Virus genome (UHGV): UHGV-0247912
Direction: 5' to 3' (one strand)
Source: a virus
DNA length: 12,589 nucleotides
The position numbers and the translations under genes were made by a program. Below are positions 5,043 through 11,857 of this stretch, in pieces; the first letter of the stretch is position 1; the number at the start of each line of letters is the position of its first letter. The notes beneath the pieces were generated by a model. That model was not told the origin of the DNA and made no database searches. It saw nothing but the letters and a program-made list of their open reading frames with translations.

Positions 5043-5060
5043 TATGTTATTTCCTCCGGT

Positions 5061-6179
5061 TTACAAAATGGAAAATTCAGGGTAATAAACAAAGCGCCCG
5101 ATCTCTCCATGATCCTGGCTGTAAATAATAACCGCCGCCAGGCGACGCGACCGCCAGCCGCCATTAGTCGAATAGGCATCCTTACCCGCTAACGTGCCGT
5201 GATACTCAACAACGCCAAGCGATGACTCGATCAGCCGTTGATGATGCCAGTGCCCGCAGTGGGCGTAAACAGCAGCAGACTTGCCGAAATCCTCGCGCCA
5301 GTCAGCTACGCAAGCAGACAATAAATTTTCTGGCTTTTTGATAGTGTGCCCGTGGTGGTAAGCAAGAAATGTTTTGCCGTACTGTGTGTGGTGGACGATA
5401 GCAGGGGACACATCAACCGTCACGCGCGGTTCATCTTCGTAAAAAGCCGCCAGCGCCGCACGTAGCCAAATCATGCCTGACTGATCGTGATTGCCTGATA
5501 ACACCTGGATTTCAACATCTTTATGATTTAACAACATCTTTCCTACCGCCCGCCGTACAGACCGGATCGCCACATAAACAAGTTTTGCGTAGCGACTATC
5601 CTGATCAAGAATATGCCCGCTTGTTGGCGTAACCGGGACCATACCATCAGAATGAAGCAGGTCACCACCGAGAAGTAAGACGGCTTTTTCAGACATCGGA
5701 GCAGCGCCAACGGCATAATCAAAGAAGTTATTTAGCACGCGTTCAGCGATCCCAGTGTCGTAGCTCTCGCCGCATTCAGCTTTATGGGCAAGCGCCCCGA
5801 TATGCAGATCAAACACAGGATAAAGGGCCAGGCTTTTTTGAAAATCAATTTCAGGCACTGGCACAGCCTCCGCGCGTGGTATTTCATCAGTGAAAGCGTC
5901 GCGGGCCGCTTCCATTAGCTGTTCCATTTCTTCGCGGTCACGGGCTGTTTTAATCCAGCGCATGATAACATTGCCGTTCTTATCCACTAGCAACGACTCA
6001 CCATTGACGCCAAAACCAGGCGCGCGGCGTGTTGATAATAAACCCCGTTTCGCCAGTTTTGCGCCCAGGCGTTCGACATTGCGTTTAGACATGCCGTACT
6101 TTTCAGCGATCTGTTTGTACGTTAATCCGTTGTTATATTCAGCGATCAATTGCTCATCACTGATTTTTCTTTGCGACAT
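5061..6179 (-). CDS. HTH domain + calcineurin-like metallophosphoesterase domain protein (372 aa)
   Basis: ATG at 6179 with GGAGGG RBS (the track start at 6203 is an alternative start codon). N-terminal HTH (LTYKQIAEKYGMSKRNVERLGAKLAKRGLL); phosphoesterase-type motifs FDLH, GGDLLHSDG, GNHD, HHGH, GHWHH. Confidence 0.7.
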   Translation of the reverse strand: MSQRKISDEQLIAEYNNGLTYKQIAEKYGMSKRNVERLGAKLAKRGLLSTRRAPGFGVNGESLLVDKNGNVIMRWIKTARDREEMEQLMEAARDAFTDEIPRAEAVPVPEIDFQKSLALYPVFDLHIGALAHKAECGESYDTGIAERVLNNFFDYAVGAAPMSEKAVLLLGGDLLHSDGMVPVTPTSGHILDQDSRYAKLVYVAIRSVRRAVGKMLLNHKDVEIQVLSGNHDQSGMIWLRAALAAFYEDEPRVTVDVSPAIVHHTQYGKTFLAYHHGHTIKKPENLLSACVADWREDFGKSAAVYAHCGHWHHQRLIESSLGVVEYHGTLAGKDAYSTNGGWRSRRLAAVIIYSQDHGEIGRFVYYPEFSIL

Positions 6180-6212
6180 AATGTTAATCCCTCCAGTTAA
6201 CAAAATGTATAC

Positions 6213-7311: not shown

Positions 7312-8364
7312 TCAAAGAGCGCCACATCGTGTATCACGTAGCGTTTTTGGTTTAAGCAGGAAATCAAGTGTCGCAGTGAAGCCATCGCCGAAGTAAAAAT
7401 CTGAAGCATTGTTTTTGAACGTTTCAAAGTAGGCGACAAAGCCGTTAATGCTTTTGTCTTTCAGGTAGTCAGTGAACGCATAAATCTTGCGTTCAAGATC
7501 CCGATCCAGTTCGGCAGGTGGCAACATGCCATCAAACGTGCTGTTAAATGCCTCCACTACGTCGGCAGCGTTTGCAGTGGCTGACAGTTTGCGCCATTTT
7601 TCAGCATCAGCCAGATACCCATCAAATTTAGTCACCCGGCAAATGTTTATAGGCTTAGGTGTTCCACCACGGCTACGCCATTGCGTTAAAGCCCACTCAA
7701 TCACTAATGTGATCTCATCCTCCGTATACGCTTTACGTGTTTTTGTTTCTGTCAGTAGTTCTACGAATGGCTTAGCATCACGACATTTACACCCTGCCTT
7801 TTCGTTGTAGAAGTCAAGGCAACGCAATGCCGCATCGCTTATCTGAAAGTCACCATCCTGATTAACTTCTTTTCTTTTTATATTTTTCTTTTCTTCTTCT
7901 GTTTCTTTTTCTTCTTCTACTTCTATTTCTAATTCATGACCCTTTCCTGACCCGGTCATGACCCTATCATGACCCTTTGGTGTTGGATTGATTAACTTTT
8001 CTAATTTTAATTGCTCCTTCGCTGTGTTTATGGCGGCCCTGTAAGCGCTTTTAGAAGTCATTGATTGGTCCAGCCTTTTCAATAACTTTAAACAAGTTAT
8101 GTGGCCTTGAGAACATTCAAACAAACCAATTTCGATGAAGTATTTCATCATTTCTTCTATACGTTTTTCAGTAGATCCGACGTTTCGCGCAATGATTCTC
8201 GCGTCATGTCGTAGGTCAAAAGTCAGATTGTGCTGATCTACGTCATAAGTTATTAGTTCGAGGCAATACCAATAAAGCCCGTACCCTTCCAGGCCATAAT
8301 CTAACAAAACGTTTTGAAGTTTTTCATCGCGGTTCGCATCGCTGTCATGCTTAAACCACTTCAT
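7312..8364 (-). CDS. replication initiation protein / replisome organizer (O-like, phage replisome-organizer N-terminal domain type)
   Basis: 350 aa; N-terminus MKWFKHDSDANRDEKLQNVLLDYGLEGYGLYWYCLELI matches the replisome-organizer N-terminal domain pattern; acidic/basic linker; RBS GGAGGG; lies directly downstream of the immunity region. Confidence 0.8.
   Translation of the reverse strand: MKWFKHDSDANRDEKLQNVLLDYGLEGYGLYWYCLELITYDVDQHNLTFDLRHDARIIARNVGSTEKRIEEMMKYFIEIGLFECSQGHITCLKLLKRLDQSMTSKSAYRAAINTAKEQLKLEKLINPTPKGHDRVMTGSGKGHELEIEVEEEKETEEEKKNIKRKEVNQDGDFQISDAALRCLDFYNEKAGCKCRDAKPFVELLTETKTRKAYTEDEITLVIEWALTQWRSRGGTPKPINICRVTKFDGYLADAEKWRKLSATANAADVVEAFNSTFDGMLPPAELDRDLERKIYAFTDYLKDKSINGFVAYFETFKNNASDFYFGDGFTATLDFLLKPKTLRDTRCGAL
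7861..7933. repeat. AT-rich homopyrimidine/homopurine tract next to the iterons (candidate DNA unwinding element)
   Basis: About 70 bp almost entirely C/T on the plus strand (cttcttttctttttatatttttcttttcttcttctg...); encodes the Glu/Lys-rich linker of the initiator. Confidence 0.5.
7934..7977. repeat. four tandem 11-bp iterons (TCATGACCCTT-like), candidate origin of replication inside the initiator gene
   Basis: Plus strand units: 7934-7944 tcatgaccctt, 7945-7955 tcctgacccgg, 7956-7966 tcatgacccta, 7967-7977 tcatgaccctt. Units 1 and 4 are identical; the period is one helical turn. Confidence 0.6.
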
Positions 8365-8809: not shown

Positions 8810-8929
8810 CGTCTTTGCAAGTATGGCCTTACCTTGTCTGCAAGTTTACAAAATGGAATTTTAAGATCAAGGCTTAAAATACACGTTTTGTGACTTGCAT
8901 CAAACTTTTTGAGGTTATAGGGTAGCGAC
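8810..8929. promoter_or_regulatory. divergent immunity control region (PR-like and PRM-like promoters, candidate operators)
   Basis: Lies between the divergent cI-type gene and the minus operon. Heptamer TGCAAGT at 8816-8822 and 8839-8845 and its complement ACTTGCA at 8893-8899. Possible minus-strand promoter TTGATG (8905-8900), 16-nt spacer, TATTTT (8881-8876). Exact operators and promoters are not resolved. Confidence 0.4.
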
Positions 8930-9577
8930 ATGAAAACAAAATGGTATGACTTAGCAAAGCAGCTCATGCGGGCGCAGGGCATGAGCCAGGATTCACTCGC
9001 GGATCGTATGGGGATAACTAAAGGCGGCCTGTCACACTGGCTGAACGGTCGCCGAGAGCCAAATCTTGAAGATATTGCGCGGATTATGCGCGAGCTTGGT
9101 CGTCGGCAGTTTACTGTTACACATGATGGCATGGTCATTGATGATTCTGTTTCTAATACACTTCAGGCCGTGCCGCCGCGTGATTTAGGTAGTTACCCGG
9201 TTATTGACTGGAAGGACACAGTAAACAATATGGATGACGCAAGGCGTTCAGCATTACGACACGTTACGACTAGCGTTATTTGTTCAGATGACAGTTACTG
9301 GCTGGTTGCCAAAGGTGAATCAATGAACGCGCCGCAGGGGTTGAGCATCCCGGCGGGGACGATGATACTTGTGGACCCGCACGCGCCAGCTATTGACGGC
9401 AAACTGGTTATAGCCCAGCTTGAGGAAGGGCAGATACCGACGTTTAAACAGTTGATTATTGATGGAGGTCAAAGGCTTTTACGTTCGCTCAATCCGCTGT
9501 ATCCGCCAATCCCTATGAATCCAGAATCAAAAATTATAGGCGTGGTGGTTGATGCGAAGATCGTAAACCTGCCATAA
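8930..9577 (+). CDS. cI: cI-type phage repressor (N-terminal HTH, C-terminal LexA/S24 autopeptidase domain)
   Basis: 215 aa; HTH GMSQDSLADRMGITKGGLSHWLNG; C-terminus GESMNAP...TFKQLIIDGGQRLLRSLNPLYPPIP parallels lambda cI ([24 protein letters not shown]) including the catalytic Ser and Lys. Confidence 0.9.
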   Translation: MKTKWYDLAKQLMRAQGMSQDSLADRMGITKGGLSHWLNGRREPNLEDIARIMRELGRRQFTVTHDGMVIDDSVSNTLQAVPPRDLGSYPVIDWKDTVNNMDDARRSALRHVTTSVICSDDSYWLVAKGESMNAPQGLSIPAGTMILVDPHAPAIDGKLVIAQLEEGQIPTFKQLIIDGGQRLLRSLNPLYPPIPMNPESKIIGVVVDAKIVNLP

Positions 9578-9582
9578 ACATT

Positions 9583-9607
9583 AGCCGCCGAATGGCGGCT
9601 TTTCTTT
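9583..9607 (+). terminator. rho-independent terminator after the repressor gene
   Basis: AGCCGCC-gaat-GGCGGCT (7-bp GC-rich stem) followed by TTTCTTT, 6 nt after the stop codon. Confidence 0.65.
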
Positions 9608-9699
9608 GCCTGGAAAACACCAAAACGTAAACAGAAAACGTTATTTATTATTTAAATATCAATGGCATATAAAATATTTTAAAAAAGTATACAAAATGG

Positions 9700-9728
9700 A
9701 TTGACTCGATGTTTTACGGGGCGTATAT
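9700..9728 (+). promoter_or_regulatory. strong sigma70-type promoter (PL-like), AT-rich upstream region
   Basis: -35 TTGACT (9700-9705), 17-nt spacer, -10 TATATT (9723-9728); very AT-rich 9640-9698 (UP-element-like). Confidence 0.5.
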
Positions 9729-9983
9729 TGCGAGTCAAAGGAAGGGCGCAGGTAACAAAAGCAACTTCCTGGCACTTTAAAAATCAGGCTTAACACCTTG
9801 TCAACCGTGGAGTAACTCCCCGATGGGGGACCGAAAGCGGCACTGATAACAAGGCGCATGGGGTGTTTAAAGCGTTACATCCCCCACGAAACCGCACGCA
9901 AGGCGACGAGTCAGCTTGCTTGGAGTGAGCAAGGTCACGCCGGGAACGGCGATGATTGCGGGATTAGTTGAAAGATGTTAAGC

Positions 9984-10021
9984 CGCTCATTAACAATCTG
10001 GTCAGCCGCTGGAAGTGCGGC
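9984..10021 (+). promoter_or_regulatory. candidate nutL site: boxA-like CGCTCATTAACAAT plus boxB-like hairpin
   Basis: CGCTCATTAACAAT (9984-9997) resembles boxA (CGCTCTTA / GCTCTTTAACAA); 7-nt spacer; hairpin GCCGC-UGGAAGU-GCGGC (10005-10021) with a purine-rich loop; sits just upstream of the N-like gene. Confidence 0.5.
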
Positions 10022-10077
10022 AATTAACGAAGATGATTTTTTATTAAGTATCATCAAGGATATACGGAGATCAGATT

Positions 10078-10368
10078 ATGAGCGTTACAATTATATATGG
10101 TAAATGTGATAGCAAAATGAATGCCAGGGAACGCAGAAGGATAAAAAGAGAAAACGAAAGAAAATCATCACCTGCAATCAATAAAACAGACAATGTGGAT
10201 AAAGCTATTCGATTTGCAAACGAGGAAAGATGCAAACCAAATAGCATTAAAGAACGTCGCAAAGGATCAGTAAAATGGTATACGGAAAATGAAAGCGGCA
10301 GCTACTACCACGCAACGCAACCACGCCATTTAGGGGAAAAACCCCTGGATAAAGTCCGCTACCATTAA
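10078..10368 (+). CDS. N: N-like transcription antitermination protein (arginine-rich motif)
   Basis: 96 aa; N-terminus MSVTIIYGKCDSKMNARERRRIKRENERK has an arginine-rich motif like lambda N (MDAQTRRRERRAEKQ) and, from memory, P22 gp24; first gene after the PL-like promoter and nut-like site; RBS GGAG 8 nt upstream. Confidence 0.7.
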   Translation: MSVTIIYGKCDSKMNARERRRIKRENERKSSPAINKTDNVDKAIRFANEERCKPNSIKERRKGSVKWYTENESGSYYHATQPRHLGEKPLDKVRYH

Positions 10369-10398: not shown

Positions 10399-10521
10399 AT
10401 GGTTATTCAGGCGCTTCAATTCAAACTGGCAGTAGCGGAAATGCTTCACGATGCCGAAATGTGGAGCGCCGCGAATAAAGCCTTATACATAGTGTTAACA
10501 GCACGGGAGATTAAATGGTGA
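10399..10521 (+). CDS. small hypothetical protein (40 aa), translationally coupled to erf (Arf-like position)
   Basis: Manual translation: MVIQALQFKLAVAEMLHDAEMWSAANKALYIVLTAREIKW. RBS GGAGGTGA before the ATG at 10399; its stop overlaps the erf start (ATGGTGA). Confidence 0.45.
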   Translation: MVIQALQFKLAVAEMLHDAEMWSAANKALYIVLTAREIKW

Positions 10522-11578: not shown

Positions 11579-11857
11579 ATGGTTGATTATCTAAAACCGC
11601 CACCACCGCCACGAACAAAAGAGCAAGTATTAAAAGAAGCCCGTGATCAAATCGATCGCGGGCTTTTTTTATGCGGCACGGCAGCGGAACGGATGGCAAA
11701 AAGATTTAGTGACCTGTACGCAAAACAAATATGGTTCGACAACTGGCAGGCAAGTTTTTATCCGCTGCAAAGAAAACCGGATATGCACTGGCCTGAATAT
11801 GTCGATCCACGTATGCGCAAATATCGCGGGCGTATGGGCCAGGTCATTAACGATTAA
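11579..11857 (+). CDS. hypothetical protein (92 aa), proline tract near the N-terminus
   Basis: Continuous with the erf-ssb operon; stop 12 nt before the next gene; weak RBS. No family recognised. Confidence 0.45.
   Translation: MVDYLKPPPPPRTKEQVLKEARDQIDRGLFLCGTAAERMAKRFSDLYAKQIWFDNWQASFYPLQRKPDMHWPEYVDPRMRKYRGRMGQVIND

Follow-up and report, generated by a model that had tools for sequence, protein, structure and literature searches.

In phage lambda, the leader of the antiterminator gene N is structured and sensitive to RNase III; a few tens of nucleotides (nt) separate the transcript start from nutL, and it is between nutL and N that the leader is structured. In the leaders of the ribosomal RNA (rRNA) operons, rrn, the 5′ strand of the 16S processing stem comes after boxB, boxA and boxC, in this order. 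In phage HK022, the put RNAs, which are about 70 nt long and fold into two stem-loops, act in cis as antiterminators without a phage protein. The locus compared here with these systems is the untranslated leader at positions 9735-10077 of a 12,589-nt stretch of the virus genome UHGV-0247912 (hereafter the window, that is, the whole stretch of DNA analysed). The leader, of ~343 nt, extends from a predicted transcript start at about 9735, placed from the position of the early promoter, to the ATG at 10078 of gp17, a gene coding for an N-like antiterminator. With a probability of about 0.7, we consider it to be an early-operon leader made of two parts, namely the nut site nutR1, in the last ~95 nt, and a non-coding structured module of ~197 nt upstream of it (Table 1).

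The closest described system is that of coliphage mEp021, one of the mEpimmI phages, a Nus-dependent and non-lambdoid group of temperate coliphages (PMC11893012). Its Gp17 protein is reported as an experimentally shown early antiterminator (Valencia-Toxqui et al. 2023, Arch Virol 168:92, as summarized in PMC11893012). In particular, according to the same summary, Gp17 acts in a Nus-dependent manner on nutR1, located upstream of gp17, on nutR2 and on nutL; terminator read-through dependent on both Gp17 and the Nus factors has been reported (Valencia-Toxqui et al. 2023), and a nut-terminator-green fluorescent protein (GFP) reporter of the system has been published. To judge from the 821 bases around the leader, which are 99.4% identical to Escherichia phage MagusPhagus and 93-97% identical to mEp010, mEp515 and mEp021, the window is a coliphage of this mEp021-like group. 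It shares with mEp021 the phage group (93-99% DNA identity), the protein and the position of the site, and mEp021 possesses the module as well. In other words, the nut/N part of the leader is a re-identification of the published nutR1-Gp17 system, showing no difference from the mEp021 literature and nothing new. As for the module, PMC11893012 does not discuss it, nor does the text use the terms gp16, non-coding, sRNA or intergenic, and the mEp021 GenBank record annotates it only as a hypothetical protein, gp16.

The hallmarks of a nut site are found together at this locus, namely a boxA match, a boxB hairpin, a location in the predicted early transcript and a cognate arginine-rich protein. Specifically, nutR1 lies after the predicted repressor-adjacent promoter at 9701-9729 and before the terminator-like hairpin at 11637-11671, on the same strand. 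The original prediction, which saw a boxA-like and a boxB-like element at the end of the leader and read them as an N/nut antitermination system, is borne out: the boxB stem covaries, and Gp17 is a close relative of the protein for which action on nutR1 is published. At the same distance from boxA, the relatives carry the hairpins GCUAC-UGAAAU-GUAGC, UGCAC-UGAAAU-GUGCA, UCGC-UGAAAU-GCGA and GCACU-GAAA-AGUGC; with that of the window, five different stem sequences are therefore represented, and the loop stays UGGAAGU, UGAAAU or GAAA. Since the stem differs among relatives with its pairing intact, the hairpin has been kept by compensatory change. From these loops we infer that all of them can present a GNRA-type tetraloop (GGAA, GAAA or GCGA). 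In a MAFFT alignment of the nut sites, the boxB stems fell out of register.

On the protein side, the arginine-rich motif of Gp17, NARERRRIKRENERK, spans residues 15-29, and the arginines R17, R19, R20, R21 and R24 of the window protein occupy the conserved positions 17, 19, 20, 21 and 24 named in PMC11893012. The protein matches PHROG 271, 'anti-termination protein N-like', with E = 1.3e-13, and scores weakly, below the cut-off, against Pfam N_peptide (E = 0.019; 15.9 versus 27.9 bits). The C-terminal half of the motif reads IKRENERK in the phages with UGGAAGU-type loops and MKRAAEQD in those with UGAAAU-type loops, and such a parallel change of motif and loop is what a matched protein-RNA pair would show. 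We hold with high confidence that nutR1 works by the established N/nut mechanism. That is, boxA would recruit the host NusB/NusE proteins, the arginine-rich motif would bind the boxB hairpin, and the resulting RNA-protein complex would stay on RNA polymerase, leading to read-through of downstream terminators.

The resemblance to lambda N/nutL is accordingly extensive, as it includes a repressor-controlled early promoter just upstream and a cognate arginine-rich protein just downstream, a GCUCUUUAACAA-like boxA, a 5-bp boxB within 6-8 nt, a purine-rich GNRA-like loop and the dependence on Nus factors. The leader is also long and untranslated, as is that of lambda N, with a predicted pairing over the start of the antiterminator gene (9994-10002 / 10068-10076). 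The differences concern, on the one hand, the phage group, which is non-lambdoid and has three nut sites rather than two (PMC11893012), and the weak match of Gp17 to N_peptide; on the other hand, a folded module of ~200 nt and a second boxA-like copy are found here upstream of the nut site. The promoter had been termed 'PL-like', a name that holds as an analogy only, this direction being named 'R' by the authors of PMC11893012. Its -35 and -10 hexamers are invariant across all relatives compared.

Table 1. Features of the gp17 leader and its surroundings, in window coordinates (ORF, open reading frame; HTH, helix-turn-helix; bp, base pairs; RNA folds are predictions).
Feature	Position	Strand	Remarks
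nutL candidate	8767-8734	-	boxA TGCTCTTTAAAAAT, 6 nt CCGGTG, hairpin UCGCU-GCGA-AGCGA; between divergent early genes
S24/HTH repressor gene	8930-9577	+	upstream of early promoter
Repressor gene terminator	9583-9600	+	early promoter comes just after
Early promoter	9701-9729	+	sigma-70-like, TTGACT-17 nt-TATATT; consensus-scan score 10/12
5′-proximal hairpin	9740-9768	+	GGAAG...CUUCC, variable loop; predicted; long form only
boxA′	9772-9784	+	GCACTTTAAAAAT; boxA-like, 3 nt upstream of module; invariant in all long-form sequences
Facultative structured RNA module	9787-9983	+	~197 nt; closed by 9-bp helix; absent from short forms
Closing helix	9787-9795 / 9975-9983	+	GGCUUAACA / UGUUAAGCC; perfect 9 bp, predicted
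Hairpin	9817-9830	+	UCCCC-GAUG-GGGGA; minimum-energy and consensus folds
gp16 ORF	9858-9971	+	37 codons; annotated in mEp021, mEp010, mEp515 and MagusPhagus; judged non-coding
Hairpin	9860-9883	+	GGGGUGU (9860-9866) / ACAUCCC (9877-9883); minimum-energy and consensus folds
Covarying hairpin	9915-9933	+	CUUGCU(U)-GGAGU-(G)AGCAAG; three pairs changed on both sides
Hairpin with GNRA tetraloop	9934-9956	+	GUCA-CGCCG-GGAA-CGGCG-A-UGAU; minimum-energy and consensus folds
boxA of nutR1	9984-9997	+	CGCTCATTAACAAT; exact pattern match; 1 position off GCTCTTTAAMAAT
boxB hairpin of nutR1	10005-10021	+	GCCGC-UGGAAGU-GCGGC; 5-bp stem, 7 nt after boxA
Hairpin	10032-10055	+	GAUGAU-12 nt-AUCAUC; predicted; between boxB and gp17 ribosome-binding site
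gp17, N-like antiterminator	10078-10368	+	96 codons; 93% identity to mEp021 Gp17; PHROG 271
Kil-like ORF	10399-10521	+	40 codons, directly 3′ of gp17; Pfam Lambda_Kil E = 2e-4 (below cut-off); PHROG 2055 E = 1.4e-3
Terminator-like hairpin	11637-11671	+	GCCCGUGAUC-AAAUC-GAUCGCGGGC, then U7 run; inside abc2-like (anti-RecBCD) ORF 11579-11857

The distinctive feature of the leader is that its upstream part is facultative. Alignment of the repressor-gp17 interval shows that mEp013, mEp044 and mEp554 are devoid of ~215 nt found in the window, while mEp021, mEp010 and mEp515, from the same laboratory collection, bear the module. Among 59 sequences (the window plus 58 loci, with some contigs fetched more than once), 46 display the long leader and 13 the short one, the distance from the -10 region to the ATG being 337-366 nt in the former and 125-151 nt in the latter; besides mEp013, mEp044 and mEp554, 10 further unique short forms are without the module. 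The gp17-nutR1 arrangement occurs in 35 of 5,426 complete E. coli genomes, and 31 of these 35 carry the long form. In the short form, transcript start and boxA are separated by ~40 purine-rich nt without structure (z from -0.6 to +0.5), and boxA has the consensus sequence, TGCTCTTTAACAAT, at the position equivalent to nutR1 boxA. Long-form leaders usually have a degenerate boxA beside boxB (CGCTCATT... or CATTCTTT...), so that presence of the module goes with a degenerate proximal boxA. The two forms differ also in the ~35 nt upstream of the module, which points to module exchange rather than to a clean insertion. Divergent relatives of Gp17 (60-73% identity) come with either the short leader or the same module, adding no new variants of it, and the Gp17 family is a small one, made up of 31 clusters at an identity of at least 60%. 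The original prediction had raised the possibility of an extra regulatory RNA element, and the 5′ 250 nt of the leader indeed hold a facultative, conserved and non-coding folded module; that this module is a discrete cassette absent from some relatives, and that boxA-like repeats flank it, had been missed.

The predicted fold of the module is well defined. The whole leader folds with -113.6 kcal/mol (z = -3.67), a value reached by none of 100 shuffles, and a 206-nt core with -78.8 kcal/mol (z = -3.16), equalled by 2 of 200; the core centroid is nearly identical to the minimum-energy structure, and minimum-energy and consensus folds agree. The reverse strand of the module folds well too, less definedly. 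Several G-U pairs, among them one that 10 of 21 sequences show, fit an RNA of the plus strand. The closing helix starts 3 nt after boxA′ and ends directly before nutR1 boxA, and is extended by UCAAC/GUUGA; the base of the module is predicted to form an imperfect rod of ~19 bp, with segments of 9, 3 and 5 bp and two 1x1 mismatches. The E21845-type lineage does not preserve the 3-bp segment in the middle. Above the rod, a first sub-domain closed by CGUGG/CCACG comprises UCCCC-GAUG-GGGGA, a weak GCG/CGC hairpin and GGGGUGU/ACAUCCC, and a second one closed by CCGCA/UGCGG comprises the hairpins at 9915-9933 and 9934-9956, the latter GNRA-capped. As regards boxA′, a search of the 12.6-kb window for GCTCTTTAAMAAT with up to two mismatches returned three matches only, namely boxA′, the boxA of the nutL candidate and nutR1 boxA. 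The boxA′ element is, in addition, 88% complementary to the plus strand at nutL boxA (inverted pair I20).

Two further observations concern the interior of the module. The sequence CGCCG-GGAA-CGGCG at 9938-9951 has a GC-rich 5-bp stem and tetraloop types like those of the boxB variants, and could be a second Gp17-binding hairpin. Moreover, CCUUGU (9796-9801) and ACAAGG (9849-9854) are perfectly complementary and invariant, and may offer an alternative pairing or a pseudoknot in competition with the lower closing rod.

Compared with these elements, the features listed in the original prediction of a structured leader are real, several of their coordinates being off by 1-7 nt and most of the helices lacking comparative support. 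The UCCCC/GGGGA hairpin is present, with a 4-nt GAUG loop at 9817-9830 instead of a 3-nt loop at 9821-9833. Of the proposed alternative pairing, CCCCC is at 9881-9885 as given, GGGG is at 9860-9863 rather than 9861-9864, and the minimum-energy structure pairs GGGGUGU with ACAUCCC. The hairpin CTTGCT-TGGAGTG-AGCAAG is found at 9915-9933, not at about 9922-9940, and it covaries.

The module is strongly conserved. Its nucleotide diversity is 0.017 among 34 unique long-form haplotypes, with values of 0.006-0.018 over 9769-9918. The corresponding figures for the repressor gene, gp17 and erf are 0.051, 0.068 and 0.070, and the promoter-proximal spacer reaches 0.08-0.09; that is, the module is 3-5 times less variable than the flanking genes. 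Conservation is strongest at 9769-9868, and long unpaired stretches of the module are invariant. In the lineage of E21845, RM9245, STEC308, L221 and L223, the hairpin at 9915-9933 becomes AUCACU...AGUGGU, with three pairs changed on both sides, one U-A changed to U-G and 100% of the cells paired. In a control, the both-side changes and the covariation score exceed those of all 500 shuffles, and the structure outperforms all slid registers. The covariation support in the leader is limited to two hairpins, this one and boxB. In the others, variation is less telling: at 9817-9830 it falls mostly in the loop and in run lengths, with one variant breaking a pair and no compensatory change; at 9860-9883 a single G-U becomes G-C and loop positions vary; at 9934-9956 both GGAA and GAAA loops occur, pairing survives one C-G to U-G change, and a frequent G to A creates an A-C mismatch, left unpaired in the consensus. 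In the 5′-proximal hairpin, which RNAalifold forms from columns 22-26 and 49-53 of alignment A3, the loop varies and the stem persists with one G-C to G-U change, no pair being changed on both sides. The remaining helices are invariant or change on one side, and the comparison speaks neither for nor against them. We conclude that constraint acts on the segment at the level of nucleic acid rather than of protein, and that at least one hairpin has been selected as a structure. The full fold is a thermodynamic prediction, of which the comparative data validate at most one helix.

The same data bear on the annotation of the segment as a protein gene. The view that it encodes a 37-residue protein, Gp16, can appeal to an ORF which is intact at 37 codons in nearly all copies and is called by phage annotation pipelines. 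However, its substitutions are 4 synonymous to 16 non-synonymous, against 22.7 and 88.3 sites, respectively, a ratio of about 1 as in neutral evolution; they are distributed 9:5:6 over the codon positions without any third-position excess, and the other two frames behave alike. Moreover, the stop codon is lost in one variant (two loci), the covariation at 9915-9933 alters five codons (L to I, A to T, S to I, Q to W and G to C), the AAGG is only 3 nt from the ATG, no PHROG or Pfam family matches, and the conservation peak at 9769-9868 lies upstream of the ORF. In addition, the Prokaryotic Genome Annotation Pipeline (PGAP) annotates nothing under the 231-nt cassette query (9755-9985) in 31 of the 31 RefSeq genomes carrying it, and no gene anywhere in the leader in the eight genomes for which the whole leader was fetched. 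A coding role is consequently very improbable, and gp16 as a protein gene was rejected on the substitution pattern: it is most likely not a gene but part of a folded RNA. A 42-codon ORF at 9975-10103 varies in length between phages, and a 27-nt deletion spans part of it in a sublineage. The claim that the leader contains no credible ORF is in this way upheld.

The distribution of the module was traced by blastn with word size 11 in phage records and E. coli genomes, in IMG/VR by two 15-mer scans, after which 218 loci were compared by local blastn, and by a gapped pattern in species-representative genomes and metagenomes. It was found in the mEp phage group only, in one copy per genome and in the same context, with matches in 4 phage records, 31 E. 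coli genomes and 11 metagenome contigs. All of these are at least 93% identical, and therefore offer too little variation for a real covariation test. The species-representative genomes gave no match, and phage records, IMG/VR and metagenomes gave no copy in another context. Similarly, Rfam 15 returned no match in 9700-10100 at E up to 1 (search of the whole window) or up to 10 (search of the region), where only chance matches to small nucleolar RNAs on the minus strand were recorded, and ARAGORN found no transfer RNA or transfer-messenger RNA. The module is a discrete, optional, strongly conserved and non-coding element, and it appears to be undescribed.

The borders of the module lend themselves to another explanation, namely that it is a functionless insertion, a mobile-element remnant or recombination scar, tolerated since, folded upon itself, it does not disturb nutR1. 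It is delimited by perfect 9-bp terminal inverted repeats, GGCTTAACA (9787-9795) and TGTTAAGCC (9975-9983), boxA′ and boxA flank it as 17-nt imperfect direct repeats, and it is polymorphic for presence, the phages without it being viable. The lower variability with respect to the flanking genes and the hairpin with compensatory changes are nevertheless hard to reconcile with a lack of function, and so is the distribution, as the insertion is in single copy at one site in 31 of 31 genomes and is found nowhere else in phages, plasmid-free chromosomes or metagenomes; furthermore, the upstream difference of ~35 nt between the two forms speaks for a module swap. An inert insertion is therefore improbable. 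As regards the more specific candidate, a miniature inverted-repeat mobile element, the terminal inverted repeats are there, but multiple copies at different sites are not, the 31 E. coli genomes having one copy each, always in the same prophage context.

How the module might operate is a matter for more tentative proposals. The most likely reading, though one that we hold only tentatively, is that of a cis-acting leader domain. The module has the repressor-controlled promoter only, and neither a promoter nor a terminator of its own. If the closing helix forms, boxA′ would be brought next to boxA and boxB, so that the leader would resemble the short form with a folded domain added to it. Such a domain could tune the assembly of the Gp17-Nus complex, or the stability of the leader and the expression of gp17; the rod at its base may, in addition, be cut by a double-strand-specific nuclease. 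The degenerate proximal boxA would make sense if boxA′ shared in NusB/NusE loading or if the domain aided assembly. It is possible, although we would not press it, that module and boxA′ together are an unrecognised functional RNA domain of a processive antitermination leader, and a new RNA family confined to the mEpimmI phages; this domain could be a scaffold which changes Gp17-Nus assembly on RNA polymerase, or a stable RNA excised between the two boxA elements, much like an rRNA operon in miniature.

The succession of boxA, 5′ helix strand, enclosed structured RNA, 3′ strand and boxA resembles an rrn leader, a resemblance only and not a membership, given that the module measures 197 nt versus 1.5 kb. 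The HK022 put RNAs are likewise structured and encoded ahead of the first early gene, downstream of an early promoter, at the place of antitermination signals. The present locus would differ from put in having a protein/nut system and a module of ~197 nt with about eight predicted helices, and blastn gave no match to the module among phage records outside the mEp group.

The rrn-like layout also invites the proposal that the module is cleaved from the early transcript at the closing rod and acts in trans as a stable small RNA, either regulator or decoy. Its self-contained and well-defined fold with the closure of 9 + 3 + 5 bp and two 1x1 mismatches would suit such an RNA, as would the high conservation of the module, the invariant long unpaired stretches expected of binding surfaces and the boxA-like elements on both sides, which parallel the architecture of the rRNA operon leader. 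Nonetheless, the module lacks a terminator and a promoter of its own, the rod is neither as long nor as regular as the classical RNase III substrates and loses its middle 3-bp segment in the E21845-type lineage, and the sole candidate trans target that was tested, the small RNA MicA, gave no significant result. We thus regard a released RNA as rather unlikely.

MicA regulates ompA and lamB, and the ompA translation-initiation region is a classical MicA target. The sequence UGAUAACAAGGCGCA at 9844-9858 matches the ompA translation-initiation (ribosome-binding) region of E. coli in 15 of 16 nt, and UGAUAACAAGGCGC, which falls for the most part into a predicted loop, can pair with MicA nt 8-22 at an opening cost of 2.9 kcal/mol versus 4.0 for ompA (ompA and MicA sequences from MG1655). 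A MicA target mimic, or sponge, would have a context in that phages of the mEp021 group have been tested on ompA and lamB receptor mutants (PMC11893012). Yet the duplex with MicA nt 1-26 reaches -18.8 kcal/mol, as opposed to -23.1 for ompA; 350 of 5000 dinucleotide shuffles of the leader (7%) pair with MicA equally well, before correction for many small RNAs; and unrelated sites of the window pair better, down to -25.6. Since the energy statistics are not significant, the match is treated as chance, and the sponge is scarcely credible.

Returning to the two-part leader, with its cis-acting module as the most likely reading, several points weigh against it. Positions 9984-10021 correspond to the published nutR1, an equation that rests on position, motif and conservation. 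The module is not essential, as mEp013, mEp044 and mEp554 are viable without it. In boxA′, a core position departs from the consensus, and no boxB-like hairpin lies within 10 nt of it. The whole covariation signal of the module comes from the hairpin at 9915-9933 in one lineage, that is, from one evolutionary event, and the other eight of the ten predicted helices display no variation or one-sided changes, so that the overall fold rests on thermodynamics. Finally, the low diversity could reflect a recent spread by recombination rather than purifying selection.

The main practical value of these observations lies in an annotation correction, gp16 being likely no gene, and in a testable question on an RNA domain enclosed between duplicated boxA elements. 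As natural variants with and without the module exist and a reporter is published, the effect of an upstream RNA domain on N-type antitermination can be directly tested. Should the module be inert, the matter would be reduced to the annotation correction.

Between nutR1 and the gp17 start, two more structures are predicted. The hairpin at 10032-10055 is dispensable, since a deletion has removed it from the E21845-type lineage and its L029 version is weaker. Moreover, a 9-bp helix may form between 9994-10002 (AAUCUGGUC, the boxA 3′ end plus spacer) and 10068-10076 (GAUCAGAUU, the stretch from the gp17 Shine-Dalgarno sequence to the ATG), enclosing boxB (segment z = -2.9). It recalls the translational autoregulation of lambda N. 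Its pairs are lost in relatives without compensation and only partly kept, and we consider this helix over the gp17 start region only a lead.

The boxA-spacer-boxB layout of nutR1 is shared by the nutL candidate of the window and by the nutR2 region of mEp021. The former is located in the leftward early leader, upstream of HTH and replication genes, and a predicted hairpin, AAGGUAAGGCC / GGC-ACUUACCUU, ends 3 nt before its boxA. A hairpin abutting boxA was considered as a general leader feature and rejected, the nutL leader showing it weakly (z = -1.66) and the short leaders not at all (z = -0.6 to +0.5). The nutR2 region, ~7.9 kb downstream in mEp021 and after a cytosine methyltransferase gene, reads TGCTCTTTAAAAAT, CCGGCA and GCGC-UGAAAU-GCGU. 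The terminator-like hairpin at 11637-11671, ~1.65 kb downstream of nutR1, is the source of a sub-threshold Rfam Thr_leader match and a likely target of Gp17-dependent read-through.

As for the neighbouring genes, gp17 is followed on the plus strand by the 40-codon Kil-like ORF, erf and ssb; the similarity of the 10399-10521 ORF to the lambda Kil septation inhibitor is weak. A repeated motif, TACAAAATGGA, adjoins the -35 box of the early promoter at 9685-9700 and recurs in the window at 8842-8857, near the divergent promoter, at 5057-5072 and at 6194-6209; in L237 it occurs at 7478-7492 and 7544-7556 as an inverted pair just 5′ of mEp021 nutR2. This motif may be bound by a regulator or be an element associated with promoters. 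Lastly, five or six head-to-tail copies of an 11-bp repeat (TCATGACCC plus 2 nt) at 7934-7975, inside a replication-protein ORF on the minus strand (7312-8364), look like origin iterons, in analogy with those of the lambda O gene.

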